Virus record (IMG/VR): IMGVR_UViG_2861048470_000002
Direction: 5' to 3' (one strand)
Origin: a virus
Taxonomy: Duplodnaviria > Heunggongvirae > Uroviricota > Caudoviricetes
DNA: 54,063 nt
In this document: positions 15,438 to 29,427 of the stretch, one piece after another
How positions within the stretch are numbered: position 1 is the stretch's first letter
Layout: every line of letters begins with the position of its first letter
The notes under the pieces: model-generated
What the model was told of the DNA's origin: nothing
Databases searched by the model: none
Seen by the model: the letters and a program-made list of their open reading frames with translations, nothing else
Program-made: the position numbers and the translations under genes

Positions 15438-15926
15438 AAGAATAAAGCACAATTAAAACCTTTGATTTGCGATAATCAACTTGCCATAATTAAGTAATCG
15501 GAGTCTGAACAACTCCGGTGACTTCTGCGCTAAACGGGGACGTTTATGCGCACATACAATCCAAACTATCTTCTCCTTTCACAGATGCAGAAATGCACCT
15601 GCAATTCTTTGCATCTAGCGTTTGACCTCTGCGGAGGTGAAGCGTGAACCTCCCACAAGACGGCATCAAATTACATCGCGGCAACTTCACCGCTATCGGC
15701 CAGCAGATCCAGCCTTATCTGGAGGAAGGCAAATGCTTTCGCATGGTGCTTAAACCGTGGTGCGAGAGACGCAGTCTTTCCCAGAATGCACTCAGCCACA
15801 TGTGGTACAGCGAAATCAGTGAATACCTCATCAGCAGGGGTAAAACGTTCGCCACTCCAGCTTGGGTAAAAGATGCTCTCAAACACACATATCTCGGTAA
15901 GCGTCAACGGAGCACCGTATTGACGC

Positions 15927-17540
15927 TTATTTATTGGTGAGTACTACGTTCCATGGCAGGAGTTCGTCAACACGGTTGGAGGGCCATTCCGGCAGTACGC
16001 TCAGAATATGGCGCAGATACGCTTCCGGATCGATACCGTTCAGTCGGCAGGTGCCGATCAGCCCGTACAGCAGTGCTCCACGCTCGCCGCCGTGATCGCT
16101 ACCGAAGAACACGTAATTTTTCTTTCCGAGACAGACTGCACGAAGCGCTCTTTCCGCTGTGTTATTGTCCACCTCCGCCAGACCGTCATCACTGTAATAA
16201 CAGAGGGCGTCCCACTGATTCAGTACATAGCTGAACGCTTCGCCCAGTCTGGATTTTTTCGACAGCGTGCCATTCTTCTCCACCATCCATTCATGCAGCG
16301 ACGTCAGTAACGCTTTGCTTCGCTGCTGCCTGGCTGCAAGACGCTCTGACTCTGGTAATCCCCGTATTTCATTCTCGATGGCGTACAGTTCACTGATTCG
16401 CTTCAGGGCTTCTTCTGCCGTCGCACTTTTGCTGCTGATGTATACATCGTGGATTTTTCTCCGGGCATGAGCCCAGCACGCAACTTCTGTCAGCGCACTA
16501 CCTTCACGTTCTGCACTGAACAGCCTGTCATAACCTGTGAACGCATCCGCCTGCAGGATACCCCGGAAGGGGCGGAGGTGTTGCTCCGGGTGTTTCCCCT
16601 GCCGGTTCGATGAGTACGCGAACCAGACCGCCGGAGGAGATGACGAACCCGCATTGCGATCATCCCGGACATACGTCCAGATGCGCCCTGTTTTCGTCTT
16701 TTTCAGGCCCGGTGCCAGTACCTTTACCGGTGTGTCGTCAGTGTGAAGCTTGCGGGTATTCATCACATAACGGTACAGGGCATCATTCAGCGGCGTCATT
16801 AACTGGCAGCACGCGTCAACCCAGTTGGAGAGTAATGCACGGCTCAGTTCGACACCCTGTCGGGCAAAGATTTCACTCTGACGATACAGTGGCAGGTGTT
16901 CGCAGTATTTTCCCGTTAACACGCGGGCAAGTAATCCGGGGCCCGCGATACCACGCTCTATCGGGCGGGACGGCGCCGGTGCTTCAACGATGCAGTCACA
17001 TTTTGTACAGGCTTTTTTTACCCGTTCTGTGCGGATCACTTTCAGGGCGCTGCTCACCAGTTCCAGTTGTTCTGCGCTGACTTCCCCCAGATAATCCAGC
17101 TCACCGCCACACTCCGGGCAACAGCTTTCTTCAGGCTCCAGGCGGTATATTTCACGGGGGAGATGTGCCGGTAACGGACGACGATGGCGCGACTGTCGCA
17201 ACTGGCGGGGAACCAGTGGGTCATCCTCACGCCCACTGTAACGATCGCTTTCCTGCTCGCGTTGTTTCAGCAGGGCTTCAGCCTGTTCAACCTCACGACG
17301 CAGTTTTTCAGAACGGGTTCCGAACAGCATCCGGCGCAGTTTTTCTATCTGAGCCCGCAGATGCTCTATTTCTCGCTCATCTTCTTCGATCTTTTCTTCG
17401 GCACGTGCCAGTGCAGAGCGCAGGAAGGCCTCCGTCTCTTCAACCAGACTCAGTTGCTGGTCTTTCTGACGGAGGGCTTCAGCCTGCTCAGAGAGCAGCC
17501 TTTCCAGCTCAGCGATGCGAATGAGGTATTTCTGACTCAT
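15927..17540 (-). CDS. IS66-family transposase TnpC, 537 aa
   Basis: Coiled-coil N-terminus, CxxC...CxxC zinc motif, and conserved core typical of IS66 TnpC. Confidence 0.9.
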   Translation of the reverse strand: MSQKYLIRIAELERLLSEQAEALRQKDQQLSLVEETEAFLRSALARAEEKIEEDEREIEHLRAQIEKLRRMLFGTRSEKLRREVEQAEALLKQREQESDRYSGREDDPLVPRQLRQSRHRRPLPAHLPREIYRLEPEESCCPECGGELDYLGEVSAEQLELVSSALKVIRTERVKKACTKCDCIVEAPAPSRPIERGIAGPGLLARVLTGKYCEHLPLYRQSEIFARQGVELSRALLSNWVDACCQLMTPLNDALYRYVMNTRKLHTDDTPVKVLAPGLKKTKTGRIWTYVRDDRNAGSSSPPAVWFAYSSNRQGKHPEQHLRPFRGILQADAFTGYDRLFSAEREGSALTEVACWAHARRKIHDVYISSKSATAEEALKRISELYAIENEIRGLPESERLAARQQRSKALLTSLHEWMVEKNGTLSKKSRLGEAFSYVLNQWDALCYYSDDGLAEVDNNTAERALRAVCLGKKNYVFFGSDHGGERGALLYGLIGTCRLNGIDPEAYLRHILSVLPEWPSNRVDELLPWNVVLTNK

Positions 17541-17570
17541 GGCCGTTTTTATAATCCGGCCCGGCGTTTT

Positions 17571-17921
17571 TTACAACATTGTCAGTGCGTTAAGGCGGGA
17601 TGTTTTTGGCTGACGCCAGTCCAGCTTATCGAGGAGCATTGCCAGTTGCGAGCGGGTAATGGATATCTTACCGTCACGCACCGCAGGCCAGATAAACTGA
17701 CCTTCCTCAAGGCGTTTGGTGAACAGGCACAGACCATCAGCATCAGCCCACAGGATTTTAATCGTGTCTCCCCGTCGGCCACGGAAGATAAACAGGTGAC
17801 CGGAGAAGGGGTTATCATCCAGCACATGCTGTATCTGCTCCCCCAGACCGTTGAAGGATTTACGCATATCAGTAACGCCGGCAACGAGCCAGATACGGGT
17901 ACCTGATGGGAGTGAAATCAT
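17571..17921 (-). CDS. IS66-family Orf2 (TnpB), 116 aa
   Basis: MISLPSGTRIWLVAGVTDMRKSFNGL, the conserved IS66 Orf2 family. Confidence 0.9.
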   Translation of the reverse strand: MISLPSGTRIWLVAGVTDMRKSFNGLGEQIQHVLDDNPFSGHLFIFRGRRGDTIKILWADADGLCLFTKRLEEGQFIWPAVRDGKISITRSQLAMLLDKLDWRQPKTSRLNALTML

Positions 17922-18355
17922 CGTCCCCTCCCGGTCAGCTCACGGATCAACACCGTGAGCAGCTCTGGTGAAGGATTTTCCAGCATCATTTTACCGTAAT
18001 GGAATTCCACATGGCAGGAAGCTGCACAAGCAACTGATAATGCCTCCGGAGCAGGAGCATCTGTAGCACAGCGCGGGGGGTCGATAAGTTCCACTGGAAC
18101 CAGAGTCGGAGAGGCCGGAAAAGATTGTGATACTGTAGGGCCTACAATAGTTGGAGGCATTCTACGAGAAATACGTCCTTCTCTTTGCCAGAGGCGTAGC
18201 CATTTAAAAATCAGGTTGTTATCAACGCCATGTTCCCGGGCCAGTTGTGCAACATTGGCATTTGGTTTCGAAGCCAGTTCAACCATATGAAGTTTAAATT
18301 CATTAGAAAATATCCGGCGGGTTCCGGAGCGCCAGTCTGTAGGTTTATCCATCAA
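17918..18355 (-). CDS. IS66-family Orf1 (TnpA), 145 aa
   Basis: HTH-like N-terminal region; first gene of the IS66 three-gene set. Confidence 0.85.
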   Translation of the reverse strand: MMDKPTDWRSGTRRIFSNEFKLHMVELASKPNANVAQLAREHGVDNNLIFKWLRLWQREGRISRRMPPTIVGPTVSQSFPASPTLVPVELIDPPRCATDAPAPEALSVACAASCHVEFHYGKMMLENPSPELLTVLIRELTGRGR

Positions 18356-18647
18356 TAGAACTCCGTCTAATTTAGAAGGAGCTCTAATTTAGTCTGCAAG
18401 GAGCAGGTGTTACAGACGGCATTGGCTTTACGCTTACATATCTCGGTTATGAAACCAAAGACCTGGTTGATGTCGTAACCGGTGATATCACCACTATCCA
18501 GTCGTTACGCCATACCTCCGATCTTGATACCGGAGAGATGTATGTCTTCCTGTGTAAGGTTGAAGCCTGGGCGATGAATATTGGTTGCCACCTGACTATT
18601 CCACAGAGCTGCGAGTTCCAGCTGCTGCGCGACAAGCAGGAGGCGTA

Positions 18648-23300: not shown

Positions 23301-23864
23301 TATCTGAATTTCACAGCGCATCTCACGCGCATATTAACGAGAGCCTTTCAGTAAGCGAGCCTGAGAAATGCCGTTATAGGTGGCGACCTCTCTCGGGCGG
23401 CTTTTCTGTGAGACAGGCTCACTTTCTAAAAGGTAAAGACGCTATGAATAATCATTCAGTTATTCCAGCCTTCGACTTCCGAGAAATGGTGCAAGCCAAA
23501 AACGGAGAGGTCGTTACCACATCCAGAAAAATTGCCAAGTACTTCGGCAAGCGACACGGTGATGTTCTCAGGAAAATCGAGCAGGTTAAGGCTGATTGCT
23601 CGCGTGAGTTTAGCCAACGCAATTTTGCGTCGGCTGATTATATCGATGAGCAGGGCAAGGTTCGCCCGATGTACAGCCTGACGAAAGATGGCTGGATCAT
23701 GGTTGTGATGGGGTTCACCGGGAAAGCTGCTGCGGCAATCAAGGAGAGCTATATCGCAGCATTCAACTGGATGGCAGAACAACTGAGCCGCCGCATGGCA
23801 ATTGGCGAAGAAATGCAGCACCGCTACGCCATCAGTAAGCGACTCGTCAGAACCGTATTGATAT

Positions 23865-25436
23865 TTACTGAGAGCTCAGATCAACTTTCCAGGGCAACAG
23901 ATCGCGTACCCGGTTTGCCGGCCAGTCCTGGATATGTTCAATGACGTAACGCAGCCACTTTTCTGGCTCCACATTGTTCAGACGGCATGTGCCGATCAGC
24001 GAGTACAACACCGCCGCATGTTCACCACCGCTGTCGGAACCCGCGAACATCCAGTTTTTCCGGCCTACGGCCACTCCCCGTAAGGCGTTCTCTGCGATGT
24101 TGTTGTCGATTTCCACCCAGCCATTACTGCAGTACACGTTCAGTGCATCCCACTGTTTCAGCAGGTATGCGAACGCTTTTGCCGTATCTGAGTGACGCGA
24201 CAGTGTTTTCATCTGTTGCTGTATCCAGTCATACAGTGACTGCATCAGTGGCGCGGCTCTGGCTTTTCTTGCCGCCAGACGCTGTTCTGCTGAACAGCCC
24301 CGGACCTCTGCCTCGATGGCATACAGTTCACCGATACGCTGCAGGGCTTCCGTGGTGATGTAGGTGGGCGCTCTTGCATGCACATCGTGGATTTTTCTCC
24401 GGGCATGAGCCATACACGCGGCTTCCGTTATTCTGCCGGATTCGTATAACGCCCGGTAACCACCGTAAGCATCGGCCTGAAGCACACCGCTGTAACCGGC
24501 CAGGTGATTTTGTGGATGGATACCTTTCCGGTCCGGACTGTACGCGAACCAGACCGCCGGGGGCATCTGTGAACCGGCGTTACGGTCATCACGGACGTAG
24601 ACCCACAGCCGGGCTGTCCGGGTTTTACCGCTGCCCGGCTCCTGGACCGGGACGGGGATATCATCAGCATGGACTTTACCGGGCATCAGCACATACTGGC
24701 GCAGGACGTCATACAGCGGCTCCAGCAGTTCAGCAACAGCACCTGTCCAGCGCCCCAGTGTGGCACGGCTCAGCTCCACTCCCTGACGACGGTATATTTC
24801 TGACTGGCGGTATAACGGCAGATGGTCTGCATATTTCCCGGTGACAACATGGGCCAGAAGCCCCGCTCCGGCATAACTGCGTGCAATGGGTTTTGAAGGT
24901 ACTGGTGCCTGCACGATATGGTCGCACCGGCAACAGGCCTGTTTCGGACGTTGTGTTTCGATAACCTTAAAGGCGCTGCTGATAAGCTCCAGTTGCTCTG
25001 ACACATCACATCCCAGAGAACTGAGTTCACCACCACAGGCAGGACAGCATTCCTCTTCCGGCCGGATAACCCGGGTTTCACGGGGAAGTGAGGCCGGTAA
25101 CGGTTTACGGGCTGAAGACTGGCGCAGGGCGGATGGCAGTACCGGGTCATATTGCTCACCCAGCGTTTCCGCCATTTCTTCCTGAAGTGCGCTGATTCGC
25201 TCCTGTGCTTCCTGTATCTGCCGTTCGGTTTTTGCACGAAGTTTTTCTGAGCTTTTACCGAACTGCATACGTTGCAGTTTCGCAACCAGCGCCTTCAGCC
25301 GGTTGATTTCGGAAGCATAAGCCGCCACCCGCTGTGAGAGCAGGCGGTTGTATTCAGCCATCTGGCGGATGGTGTCCTGTTGCGTCTGCAACAGTGCCCG
25401 CAGGCGGGCGTTCTCATGAGCAAGTGAGGTGTCCAT
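23865..25436 (-). CDS. IS66-family transposase TnpC, 523 aa
   Basis: Homologous in layout and motifs to the other two TnpC copies but clearly a distinct sequence. Confidence 0.9.
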
Positions 25437-25455
25437 ATCCTCACTTTACAACGGG

Positions 25456-25803
25456 TTATATGCGGATTCCAGCGCGTTCCGTTCGTTTCGGGTGCTTCCA
25501 GTTGATACCTTCAAGAAGCATGGATAACTGAGCCGGAGTAAGGTGCACCTTGCCGTCACGGGTGACTGGCCAGACGAAGCGGCCCCGCTCCAGGCGTTTG
25601 GTGAAGAGGCACAGTCCGTCACTGTCAGCCCACAACACTTTTATCTGGTCACCCCGGCGTCCGCGGAAGATGAACAGGTGTCCGGAGAACGGGTCATCCT
25701 TCAGGACGTTCTGAACTTTTGATGCCAGGCCGTTAAAGCCATTTCGCATATCGGTGATACCTGCAACCAGCCAGATACGCGAACCTGCAGGGAGAGATAT
25801 CAT
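25456..25803 (-). CDS. IS66-family Orf2 (TnpB), 115 aa
   Basis: [26 protein letters not shown]. Confidence 0.9.
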   Translation of the reverse strand: MISLPAGSRIWLVAGITDMRNGFNGLASKVQNVLKDDPFSGHLFIFRGRRGDQIKVLWADSDGLCLFTKRLERGRFVWPVTRDGKVHLTPAQLSMLLEGINWKHPKRTERAGIRI

Positions 25804-26450
25804 CAGTGGCTGCTCCCTTTTATTTCGCGGATAAGTGTCTGTAATAACGCCGGCGTCAGTTTACCTTTAAGCCTGAGAGTTCCGGCCGGCAGAACCAGCT
25901 CACAACACAGACTGTCGGGCGGTGTATTTATCTGCTCTGGTTCCTGTGCGGGGGCCGGGATTTTATTATCCGGCTCCGGCGTTAACGTCACGGGAAGCAG
26001 TGCCGGCATATTTTTTCCGGAAGGCAGCAGGCCACCTTTCCGGTATTGATGGCGCCAGTTGAAGAGCAGGTTATCGTTGATTCCGTTTTCCCGGGCGATC
26101 TGCGCCACACAGGCTCCGGGCTGCAGTGACTGCTCCACTAAGGCGATTTTAAACTCATAAGGGAAGTTGGGCCGCCGGGGACGTTTTTTTACCACGGGGG
26201 CTTCGGATATAACGGTGCTTTCAGGACGTACGACTGGTACCGTGGAAAATTGTCCGTAAAGGCAGGCATCAAGTTCCTGCTCCGACATGCCTGCGGGCAA
26301 AGGCCACGAAAGGCCAGCTCTCCGAAAGCGCACGAACATACTACAAACAGTTGATTTTGGTACACCCAGGCGACGCCCGGCCACAACCCGGGGTAAATGT
26401 TCTTCAAAGTGAAGACGTAAAGCTTCAGTGATCCAGGTCCGGTGTTTCAT
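25803..26450 (-). CDS. IS66-family Orf1 (TnpA) with an extended N-terminal HTH-like region, 215 aa
   Basis: True start is the ATG at 26450 (MKHRTWITEALRL...); the 249-aa track ORF is an artefact that reads on into the nested IS. Confidence 0.7.
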   Translation of the reverse strand: MKHRTWITEALRLHFEEHLPRVVAGRRLGVPKSTVCSMFVRFRRAGLSWPLPAGMSEQELDACLYGQFSTVPVVRPESTVISEAPVVKKRPRRPNFPYEFKIALVEQSLQPGACVAQIARENGINDNLLFNWRHQYRKGGLLPSGKNMPALLPVTLTPEPDNKIPAPAQEPEQINTPPDSLCCELVLPAGTLRLKGKLTPALLQTLIREIKGSSH

Positions 26451-26541
26451 ACGATAGTGTCCATTAAAAAGTAAGCGTACAGCCTGAACCGTCTGGTCAG
26501 AATCTGACAAATTAGACAAAGTGGTGTCCACCAAATAAGTA

Positions 26542-26943
26542 GTGGGAACCAAAGTGTCAGATATGCAGAAAAATGTGACTCCCGGCAGGCGAAAAGGCTG
26601 CCCTAATTATCCTCCCGAATTTAAACAGCAGCTCGTTGCTGCCTCCTGTGAACCCGGGATATCCATCTCAAAACTTGCTCTTGAAAATGGCATTAACGCC
26701 AATCTGTTGTTCAAATGGCGACAACAATGGCGCGAGGGAAAGCTGCTATTACCTTCTTCAGAGAGCCCCCAGCTACTTCCTGTGACTCTCGATGCAGCTG
26801 CCGAACAGCCAGAATCGCTCGCAGAGGACCCGGAAACCCTCAGTATCAGCTGTGAGGTAACGTTCCGGCACGGGACGCTCCGCTTCAATGGCAATGTCAG
26901 CGAAAAGCTCCTGACTCTGCTGATACAGGAACTGAAGCGATGA
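26542..26943 (+). CDS. IS66-family Orf1 (TnpA), 133 aa
   Basis: First gene of the three-gene IS66 set. Confidence 0.9.
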   Translation: MGTKVSDMQKNVTPGRRKGCPNYPPEFKQQLVAASCEPGISISKLALENGINANLLFKWRQQWREGKLLLPSSESPQLLPVTLDAAAEQPESLAEDPETLSISCEVTFRHGTLRFNGNVSEKLLTLLIQELKR

Positions 26944-27287
26944 TCCCGTTACCTTCCGGGACCAAAATTTGGCTGGTTGCCGGTATCACCGATATGAGAA
27001 ATGGCTTCAACGGCCTGGCTGCGAAAGTACAAACGGCGCTGAAAGACGATCCCATGTCCGGCCATGTTTTCATTTTCCGGGGCCGCAGCGGCAGTCAGGT
27101 TAAACTGCTGTGGTCCACCGGTGACGGACTGTGCCTCCTGACCAAACGGCTGGAGCGTGGGCGCTTCGCCTGGCCGTCAGCCCGTGATGGCAAAGTGTTC
27201 CTTACGCAGGCGCAGCTGGCGATGCTGCTGGAAGGTATCGACTGGCGACAGCCCAAGCGGTTGCTGACCTCCCTGACCATGCTGTAA
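26940..27287 (+). CDS. IS66-family Orf2 (TnpB), 115 aa
   Basis: [26 protein letters not shown]. Confidence 0.9.
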
Positions 27288-27336
27288 ATCTCTTTATCCT
27301 GGTTGTCACAGAATAAGCCCGGTAAAATACGGGCTT

Positions 27337-28875
27337 ATGAACGACATCTCTTCTGACGACATCTTCCTGCTGAAACAGCGCCTGGCCGAACAGGAAGCGC
27401 TGATCCACGCCCTGCAGGAAAAGCTGAGCAACCGGGAGCGCGAAATAGACCATCTGCAGGCGCAGCTGGATAAACTCCGCCGGATGAACTTCGGCAGTCG
27501 TTCCGAAAAAGTCTCCCGCCGTATCGCACAAATGGAAGCCGATCTGAACCGGCTTCAGAAAGAGAGCGATACGCTGACTGGTAGGGTGTATGACCCGGCT
27601 GTACAGCGTCCGTTGCGTCAGACCCGCACCCGTAAGCCGTTCCCTGAATCACTACCCCGTGACGAAAAGCGACTGTTGCCTGCGGCGCCGTGCTGCCCGA
27701 ACTGCGGCGGTTCACTGAGCTATCTGGGCGAGGATACCGCCGAACAGCTGGAGTTGATGCGTAGTGCCTTCCGGGTTATCCGGACGGTACGGGAAAAACA
27801 TGCCTGTACTCAGTGCGATGCCATCGTGCAGGCACCTGCACCTTCGCGGCCCATCGAGCGGGGTATCGCCGGACCGGGGCTGCTGGCCCGCGTGCTGACC
27901 TCGAAGTATGCAGAGCACACCCCGCTGTATCGCCAGTCAGAAATATACGGCCGGCAAGGTGTGGAGCTGAGCCGTTCACTGCTGTCGGGCTGGGTGGATG
28001 CATGCTGCCGGCTGCTGTCTCCGCTGGAAGAGGCGCTTCATGGCTATGTCATGACTGACGGCAAACTCCATGCCGATGATACCCCGGTCCAGGTACTGCT
28101 GCCGGGTAATAAGAAGACGAAGACCGGGCGGTTGTGGGCGTATGTTCGTGATGACCGCAATGCCGGGTCAGCGTTGGCACCTGCAGTGTGGTTCGCTTAC
28201 AGCCCGGACAGAAAAGGCATCCATCCGCAGACTCATCTTGCCTGCTTCAGCGGTGTGCTGCAAGCGGATGCGTACGCCGGGTTCAACGAGCTGTATCGCA
28301 ATGGTGGGATAACGGAAGCTGCCTGCTGGGCTCATGCCCGCCGAAAGATCCACGATGTGCACGTCCGCATCCCGTCAGCACTGACGGAAGAAGCCCTGGA
28401 GCAGATCGGTCAGTTGTACGCCATAGAGGCGGATATAAGGGGAATGCCGGCAGAGCAGCGGCTTGCTGAACGTCAGCGAAAAACGAAACCGCTGTTGAAA
28501 TCCCTGGAAAGCTGGTTGCGTGAAAAGATGAAAACCCTGTCGCGACACTCAGAACTGGCGAAAGCGTTCGCATACGCCCTGAACCAGTGGCCGGCGCTGA
28601 CGTACTATGCAGATGATGGCTGGGCTGAGGCGGACAATAACATCGCTGAAAATGCGTTGCGGATGGTCAGTCTGGGCCGCAAAAACTACCTGTTCTTCGG
28701 TTCGGATCATGGAGGAGAGCGGGGAGCGCTGCTGTACAGCCTGATCGGGACGTGCAAACTGAACGGAGTGGAGCCAGAAAGCTACCTCCGCTATGTCCTT
28801 GACGTCATAGCCGACTGGTCGATAAACCGGGTCGGCGAACTGCTCCCCTGGCGCGTAGCACTGCCGACTGAATAA
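27337..28875 (+). CDS. IS66-family transposase TnpC, 512 aa
   Basis: Coiled-coil N-terminus, zinc motif CPNCGG...CTQCD, conserved core. Confidence 0.9.
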
Positions 28876-29427
28876 CACATCCCCGTCAATACGGTTCTTG
28901 CTGCACGCTTACATTAAAAATGATGGACATTATTTTTGTAGAGCCGGAGGAAACAGACCAGACGGTTTAAATGAGCCGGTTACCGCCATCAAAGAAACAC
29001 GCTCAAAGCTGAAAGGTACGATCGGCAGTCGGTTAATGAACGAACGGAAGAAAGAGAAGCGTGTCCTGGCTGTCGAGCATGAATACATCTTGCAGGTGAC
29101 ACAGCCTGAACTGCTGATTAATTGAAGATGTCATTACAAAGCCTATCTACGGGGGGCTTGATAATGGCTTATACCCTGCACGGGATAACTTAACTGATAT
29201 CCCTTTTAACGGATAAAGGTATTCAAGCCTGACACATCATGCGCTGTATCGTCGCCGTATTCCCGCATTAACCATGACCGTAGCCCGACGGGGAATTCCT
29301 TCTGCGTGAGTGTGCGGGAATAATCAAAAACGATGCACACCGGGTTATTAACGCGTCAACTGAACGCGGGGTTGCTCTTCATGTCAGCCAGTCCGGTGCA
29401 GGGGTAGAAGAAACCGGACGTTATGGT

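Follow-up and report, generated by a model that had tools for sequence, protein, structure and literature searches.

Nested ISEc8-Type and ISCro1-Type Elements of the IS66 Family in the Rha Gene of a Lambdoid Prophage

The virus record IMGVR_UViG_2861048470_000002 (Caudoviricetes), a stretch of 54,063 nucleotides hereafter called the window, carries a Rha-family gene that is disrupted by two distinct insertion sequences (IS) of the IS66 family, one nested within the other and each flanked by its own 8-bp target duplication. The structure very probably arose in a lambdoid prophage by two ordinary transpositions, one on top of the other, with an element of ISEc8 type lying inside one of ISCro1 type, which in turn lies inside Rha. 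An earlier description made from the letters of the window, hereafter the sequence-only reading, had proposed this nested arrangement with coordinates that our analysis found to be correct to the base, and the structure itself is contradicted by none of the data. The event is of an ordinary kind and its elements are known and widespread; the mildly new material is limited to a conserved leader palindrome in the subgroup with long TnpA proteins and to its possible link with an extra helix-turn-helix (HTH) domain.

Structure and Boundaries of the Nested Elements

A script check against the window sequence placed the two copies of the outer duplication, CGCCATCA, at 23827-23834 and 28984-28991, and those of the inner duplication, ATTAAAAA, at 26463-26470 and 28913-28920. 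The outer span (23835-28983) measures 5,149 bp, equal to the 2,699 bp of the outer element without its passenger plus the 2,442 bp of the inner element (26471-28912) and 8 bp of duplication, whereas the chance of an 8-bp match falling exactly at both boundaries is about 1.5e-5 per element. Imperfect terminal inverted repeats bound both elements (GTAAGCGACTCG... and GTAACCGGCTCA... in the outer, GTAAGCGTACAGC... and GTAAGCGTGCAGC... in the inner); they start with GTAAGCG or GTAACCG and have the core AACCGT in common. Duplications, lengths and terminal repeats thus agree with the sequence-only reading, which had described an outer element with genes on the minus strand between two copies of the same 8-mer and a second element of 2442 bp with its own duplication. 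That the repeats and duplications should align in this way had been set beforehand as a test, and they do so by script.

The outer element is divided by its passenger into two unequal parts. The larger, of 2,636 bp (23835-26470, minus strand), extends from the terminal repeat near tnpC to the left copy of the inner duplication. It contains intact tnpC (23865-25436; DDE transposase of 523 aa, matching DDE_Tnp_IS66 at 2.5e-103, zf-IS66, LZ_Tnp_IS66, DDE_Tnp_IS66_C and the NCBIfam model transpos_IS66), intact tnpB (25456-25803; IS66 Orf2 accessory protein of 115 aa, TnpB_IS66 4.7e-40) and intact tnpA (25803-26450; 215 aa, NF038385 3.5e-88), the product of which has an additional N-terminal three-helix domain and a disordered linker ahead of HTH_Tnp_1. 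The smaller part, by script and leader comparison, is the detached tnpA-proximal end of 63 bp (28921-28983, minus strand), with the remainder TG of the palindrome loop, the distal palindrome arm ATGGACATTAT, any promoter sequence upstream of the loop, and the terminal repeat. The inner element is complete on the plus strand and comprises tnpA (26563-26943; 126 aa, HTH_Tnp_1 1.8e-12 and NF047595), tnpB (26940-27287; 115 aa, TnpB_IS66 1.2e-38) and tnpC (27337-28875; DDE transposase of 512 aa, DDE_Tnp_IS66 5.7e-106 with zf-IS66, LZ_Tnp_IS66 and the C-terminal element). Its tnpA is mechanically opened at GTG 26542 in the list of open reading frames (ORFs), and the 381-bp annotation of other copies in RefSeq implies a start at ATG 26563.

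All six genes, three per element, are intact in the ORF list and follow the order that defines the IS66 family, namely consecutive tnpA (HTH), tnpB (IS66 Orf2) and tnpC (DDE, zinc finger, leucine zipper). The Pfam models HTH_Tnp_1, TnpB_IS66, DDE_Tnp_IS66, zf-IS66, LZ_Tnp_IS66 and DDE_Tnp_IS66_C exceed their curated cut-offs in both elements, which are also matched by NCBIfam transpos_IS66 and by IS66 TnpA models. Perfect 8-bp duplications of the IS66 type were found in five further insertions of ISCro1 and four further insertions of ISEc8, and copies of the elements occupy many distinct sites with fresh duplications, a fact that bears on transposition only indirectly.

The Disrupted Rha Gene

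The interrupted gene lies between the lysis and terminase genes of the window. Its 5' part (23444-23834, plus strand) holds codons 1-130 and the first base of codon 131, and its 3' part (28992-29125, plus strand) holds the last 44 codons, minus one base, with the stop codon. Joining the two yields an ORF of 174 aa, as expected from the claim that the Rha frame resumes right after the duplication, and the restored protein matches Phage_pRha (PF09669) over residues 25-111 (E=2.2e-28; 99.1 bits against a gathering threshold of 29.9). Removal of the composite with one copy of the duplication produces 800 bp that are 100% identical, in one piece, to loci of many E. coli genomes annotated as 'Rha family transcriptional regulator'. 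Strain 120899, for instance, has an intact Rha of 174 aa in the same context of lysis, Rha, DUF1398 and terminase genes. As it stands in the window, the interrupted ORF reads 36 codons into the IS and stops at 23944; the truncated protein, as inferred from its frame, would retain the Phage_pRha domain, lose the 44 C-terminal residues and gain a tail of 36 residues encoded by the IS. The region would best be annotated as Rha::ISCro1::ISEc8, with Rha as a pseudogene, and the finding has little importance beyond annotation.

The same prophage region has received ISCro1 more than once. Four independent insertions, in both orientations, fall within about 300 bp of the Rha 3' region (window 23827-29283 restored; L001, L151, L155/L159 and L219), with the duplications CGCCATCA in the window, GGTGACAC in L155/L159 (deduced from one flank), GCCTGAAC in TB354 and GACCGTAG in L151, the last lying downstream of an intact Rha. 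Insertions may simply be tolerated in this part of the prophage, or it may be a regional hotspot. In strain 120899, an IS100 sits directly upstream of Rha.

Identity of the Two Elements

E. coli copies with a transposase that RefSeq names 'IS66-like element ISCro1 family transposase' match the outer element at 99.7-99.9% identity over its 2,699 bp. Once ISEc8 and one copy of its duplication are removed, the ISCro1 leader of 363 bp is 100% identical to many uninterrupted copies, with 2,104 records matching 80% or more of its length; both empty sites restored in silico, that of Rha and that of the leader, are thus identical to uninterrupted E. coli sequences. The length of 2,699 bp is backed by the duplications of six insertions and by a contig of exactly that size (L005, SFGJ01000083.1), which consists of ISCro1 alone at 99% identity. 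This contig is filed under a metagenome-assembled genome of 'Clostridiales bacterium', probably through mis-binning or contamination. Pantoea stewartii ATCC 8199 (L008-L084) has more than 70 ISCro1-like copies of at least two types, with duplication-supported lengths from 2,666 to 2,684 bp, and this variation implies a variable internal tract. No locus of Citrobacter rodentium appeared among the best 80 loci of the genome-contig scan.

Copies in enterotoxigenic E. coli (ETEC) match the inner element at 100% identity in strain TW10722 and at 99.96% in TW10590; RefSeq labels the transposase of these copies only as 'IS66 family transposase'. Copies that bear the RefSeq label 'ISEc8 family' are 96.7-99.7% identical to it. 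Complete and with all three genes intact, this ISEc8 copy is presumably active.

Uniqueness of the Junctions and Pairs of ISCro1 and ISEc8 Elsewhere

We searched for the same arrangement in 5,426 complete E. coli genomes and, by exact match, in viral and metagenome contigs. ISEc8 inside ISCro1 at the position seen in the window was not found: the inner junction does not occur in one piece in the complete genomes and is absent from the viral and metagenome contigs. The junction of Rha with ISCro1 is likewise unique, with no other copy in the complete genomes or in the exact-match contig scan, and the read-through ORF of 249 aa was not on record when looked up. The four unique junctions, none of which occurs among the complete genomes, could thus be used as markers for strain typing.

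Junctions seen nowhere else, together with IS66 copies that are numerous and partly similar, might suggest that a short-read assembly had wrongly linked repeated copies into a chimera. Such a chimera, however, would not give perfect 8-bp duplications at both levels or seamless empty sites, and the two elements share no more than about 70-78% identity, a level too low for them to be mis-joined; we consider an assembly artefact to be hardly credible.

Nested or closely adjacent pairs of the two elements are common. Among the 5,426 complete genomes, head-to-head pairs were found in 202 records from 174 genomes, and an artificial composite with both elements in the same orientation matched 211 records from 199 genomes. 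All the pairs that were examined show the reverse nesting, with ISCro1 inside ISEc8 and a perfect 8-bp duplication at ISEc8 positions 63-70, 79-86, 98-105, 303-310 or 603-610. The five insertions are all head-to-head and three of them lie 63-105 bp from the ISEc8 end, just as the ISEc8 of the window lies 63 bp from the ISCro1 end, a pattern that would be expected if IS66 elements targeted each other by recognizing the end of a related element, preferably head-to-head and close to the leader. Yet the orientation bias is an ascertainment artefact of the queries, since the same-orientation control is equally frequent (199 versus 174 genomes), and in a sample chosen by TnpA alone nesting was seen in just one of 75 elements, which had the same orientation and lay at position ~467. 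Mutual targeting with this bias (six of six) was therefore largely refuted as a product of the queries, and we regard it as highly improbable.

Two other associations deserve mention. On plasmid pLSN03016011A_163 (L085), a 102-bp piece of ISEc8 (positions 62-163) stands between two ISCro1 copies arranged in tandem. In ETEC H10407 (NC_017633.1, 2303981-2309122), an element of ISEc8 type seems to adjoin ISCro1 in the same orientation, with one aligned piece spanning the artificial composite.

Order of Events, Expression and Mobility

In the proposed sequence of events, an ISCro1-type element would have entered codon 131 of the Rha-family gene, duplicating CGCCATCA, and an ISEc8-type element would then have inserted head-to-head into that ISCro1 copy, duplicating ATTAAAAA; its target would have been the A/T-only loop of a palindrome 6 nt upstream of the tnpA start. 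Expression of the outer tnpA-tnpB-tnpC genes in cis is probably reduced as a consequence, because the passenger now separates them from the 63-bp end, in which any promoter sequence that the element carries upstream of the loop must lie, and silencing of the outer element by the nested copy is plausible. A scan found no consensus promoter reading out of the ISEc8 end or within the detached 63-bp end, and a terminator scan of these two ends and of the ISCro1 end returned a single terminator-like site, at chance level.

Several points weigh against this reading or parts of it. The names ISCro1 and ISEc8 are both given by proxy, from the RefSeq labels of near-identical copies. A consensus scan found no sigma-70 promoter in the intact ISCro1 end, and transcripts that read out of ISEc8 could even be freed from an inhibitory hairpin by loss of the distal palindrome arm. 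Nor is the order of events proven, given that the composite could have formed elsewhere and then entered Rha as a unit.

For such unit movement, ISEc8 would have entered ISCro1 at another locus and the 5,149-bp structure would then have reached Rha via the ISCro1 ends, with transposase supplied in trans, in which case the outer element was not functionally dead on arrival. The ISCro1 ends are both preserved, either route would leave the same outer duplication, and several 100%-identical ISCro1 copies in related ETEC strains are a possible source of transposase. Nevertheless, no second copy of the composite was seen, its inner junction being found neither in one piece in the complete genomes nor by exact match in viral or metagenome contigs, and we judge this route to be improbable compared with two successive insertions. 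Whatever its origin, the composite has kept both ISCro1 ends, so that other ISCro1 copies could supply the transposase to mobilize it in trans.

The Start and N-Terminal Extension of ISCro1 TnpA

The position of ISEc8 relative to the outer tnpA depends on the start codon of this gene. The RefSeq form of ISCro1 TnpA (WP_001339397.1) has 225 aa and begins MSIIFNGHYRMKHRTW, a start that would place ISEc8 inside codons 4-6. In relatives from Pantoea, Erwinia, Mixta and Citrobacter these ten extra codons are broken, by an in-frame stop in one lineage and by an extra T that shifts the frame in most others, and ATG or GTG is kept in all of them at the position of Met11, which corresponds to ATG 26450. 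In the 225-aa form, moreover, the match to the NF038385 profile begins only at residue 13, and the annotated start of distant homologues is Met11. On these three grounds ATG 26450, the start chosen in the sequence-only reading, appears to be right, and the RefSeq protein probably starts 10 codons too early, at the cost of including restored positions 26451-26480. The 12 nt between the duplicated 8-mer and ATG 26450 also bear out, within the definition used, the placement of the inner element '13 bp upstream' of the first gene.

The outer Orf1 had further been said to have an unusual extra N-terminal region of about 100 aa. The region is real, for HTH_Tnp_1 is shifted to residues 102-159 of the 225-aa form (from ~92 of 215 aa) versus 23-93 in the ISEc8 protein; it is not unusual, being the hallmark of the curated NCBIfam subfamily NF038385. 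ISCro1 TnpA scores 294 bits with this model against a cut-off of 150 and covers profile positions 1-189 of 190, extension included, whereas ISEc8 TnpA aligns only with positions 73-189 and remains below the cut-off. In the AlphaFold2 model the extension forms a three-helix bundle of its own (residues 3-44 and a further helix at 57-65; predicted local distance difference test score ~80-87), and a disordered linker connects it with the second HTH. The extension gives weak HTH signals with HTH_23 (E=0.065) and Sigma70_r4 (E=0.073) and is probably a second HTH domain. A Foldseek search with the TnpA model returned nothing significant (best E=0.21), its top entries being bipartite HTH DNA binders; a PDB sequence search with the extension gave no match, and a homology search with it returned mostly fragments. 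A possible resemblance to the N-terminus of IS21 IstA was confirmed by no search.

A Conserved Palindrome in the Leader of Long-TnpA Elements

The sequence-only reading had noted a palindrome TGTCCAT...TGGACA around the inner duplication, and this proved to be real and longer than described. In the restored sequence its 11-bp arms, ATAGTGTCCAT (26454-26464 on the plus strand, proximal to tnpA) and ATGGACATTAT (28923-28933), are complementary at 10 of 11 positions and enclose the 8-nt loop TAAAAATG. The consensus (A)TA(G/A)TGTCCAT-N8/9-ATGGACA(C/T)TAT is present 6 nt upstream of tnpA in all the long-TnpA IS66 elements sampled (L005-L084 and the window). It is near-invariant in nine distinct leaders from Escherichia, Citrobacter, Pantoea, Erwinia and Mixta, the TnpA proteins of which are only 54-66% identical, and nothing else in the leader except the terminal repeat is conserved as well. 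Pairing across these nine leaders reaches 97%, versus 19-49% when the partners are slid. The loop contains a -10-like hexamer, TTTAAT in most leaders and TATAAT following TTGACA in the type-A element of Pantoea. The two short-TnpA elements of the window, ISEc8 and the ISEc47-type element described below, do not have the palindrome and share AAATTAGA motifs in their leaders instead.

Because it is the best-conserved part of the leader and is absent from these two short-TnpA elements, the palindrome may tentatively be considered a regulatory element specific to the ISCro1/IS679-type branch with long TnpA, even if we hold this to be less probable than not. It might act as an operator for the extra N-terminal HTH, which only that branch has, or as a fold-back hairpin that blocks translation of read-through transcripts, and its splitting by ISEc8 would then have uncoupled the outer element from its own control. 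Covariation in the palindrome is not significant, the observed score being reached by 286 of 500 shuffles with eight of the 11 pairs invariant, so that a protein-binding palindrome fits at least as well as an RNA hairpin. The control of transposition is poorly understood in the IS66 family, for which the conserved palindrome and the two-domain TnpA offer a concrete and cheap hypothesis on regulation.

Target Choice of ISEc8

The choice of the loop by ISEc8 would most likely follow from a weak preference for A-rich 8-mers, with the palindrome not being the cause. Among 45 distinct ISEc8 insertion sites, this A-rich preference is seen at positions -4 to -2 of the duplication. ISCro1 has a guanine plus cytosine content of 55% and only 12 of its 2,692 8-mer windows are all-A/T, in about seven clusters, two of these windows lying in the loop.

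One might suppose instead that the leader palindrome is an insertion hotspot, directed by structure or by protein, with a loop that attracts other ISs so that the nesting would not be due to chance. An unrelated IS3-family element does occupy this loop in another copy of ISCro1 (L160 and L197, IMG/VR contigs), and it is one of only two internal interruptions of ISCro1 in the viral-contig sample. However, with about seven A/T clusters available, two elements that prefer A/T would share one roughly one time in seven; the ISCro1 leaders of prophage contigs are intact in 60 of 62 sampled, the two exceptions having this IS3-family element in the loop; and the four other ISEc8 targets that were fully reconstructed have no evident flanking inverted repeat by inspection. 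A hotspot thus seems unlikely in comparison with the A-rich preference of ISEc8. The loop as a statistically supported hotspot was left unsupported once the scarcity of A/T-only 8-mers in ISCro1 was counted, and the palindrome as a target signal for ISEc8 was ruled out by the four targets without evident inverted repeats and by the weak preference that is all they and the other sites display. The IS3-family element itself is ~1.43 kb long, with inverted repeats TGAACTGCGCCCC, a 4-bp duplication AAAA, and orfA and orfB of 168 and 287 aa.

A Third IS66-Family Element in the Prophage

Another complete IS66-family element of 2,541 bp is present at 15897-18437, with genes on the minus strand for TnpC (537 aa), TnpB (116 aa) and TnpA (145 aa) and an 8-bp duplication ATATCTCG. 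Copies 100% identical to it are named 'ISEc47 family' in RefSeq, and, judging from the translated sequence, it appears to split a ninB-like gene. With ISCro1, ISEc8 and this ISEc47-type element, the prophage harbours three different IS66 elements.

Comparison with Known Systems

ISEc8 is an IS66-family element of E. coli O157:H7 and other enterohaemorrhagic E. coli. The inner element resembles it in having three genes within 2,442 bp, terminal repeats that begin GTAAGCG and a target duplication of 8 bp, and its length and duplication agree with the ISEc8 entry of ISfinder; the copy in the window differs in being an ETEC-type isoform.

ISCro1 was named from Citrobacter rodentium ICC168, in which 24 copies were reported (PMC3072379). 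Its length has been given as 2,824 bp (PMC8764528), which does not match the 2,699 bp found here. The outer element otherwise has the same three genes (215/225, 115 and 523 aa) and 8-bp duplications, but is interrupted in its leader. A close relative of ISCro1 is IS679, the genes of which, in the work of Han et al. from 2001, are reportedly of almost the same sizes as those of the outer element.

Leader hairpins shield the transposase genes of IS10 and IS50 from outside transcription, and operator palindromes can overlap promoters. The ISCro1 palindrome differs from them in being known from sequence alone, with covariation that is not significant and no consensus promoter by scan, whereas its likeness to them would lie in an inverted repeat directly upstream of the first gene and in the -10-like hexamer of the loop. 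Finally, the known pairs of ISCro1 and ISEc8 in E. coli have the two elements nested or close to each other as in the window, with the nesting reversed in those examined.

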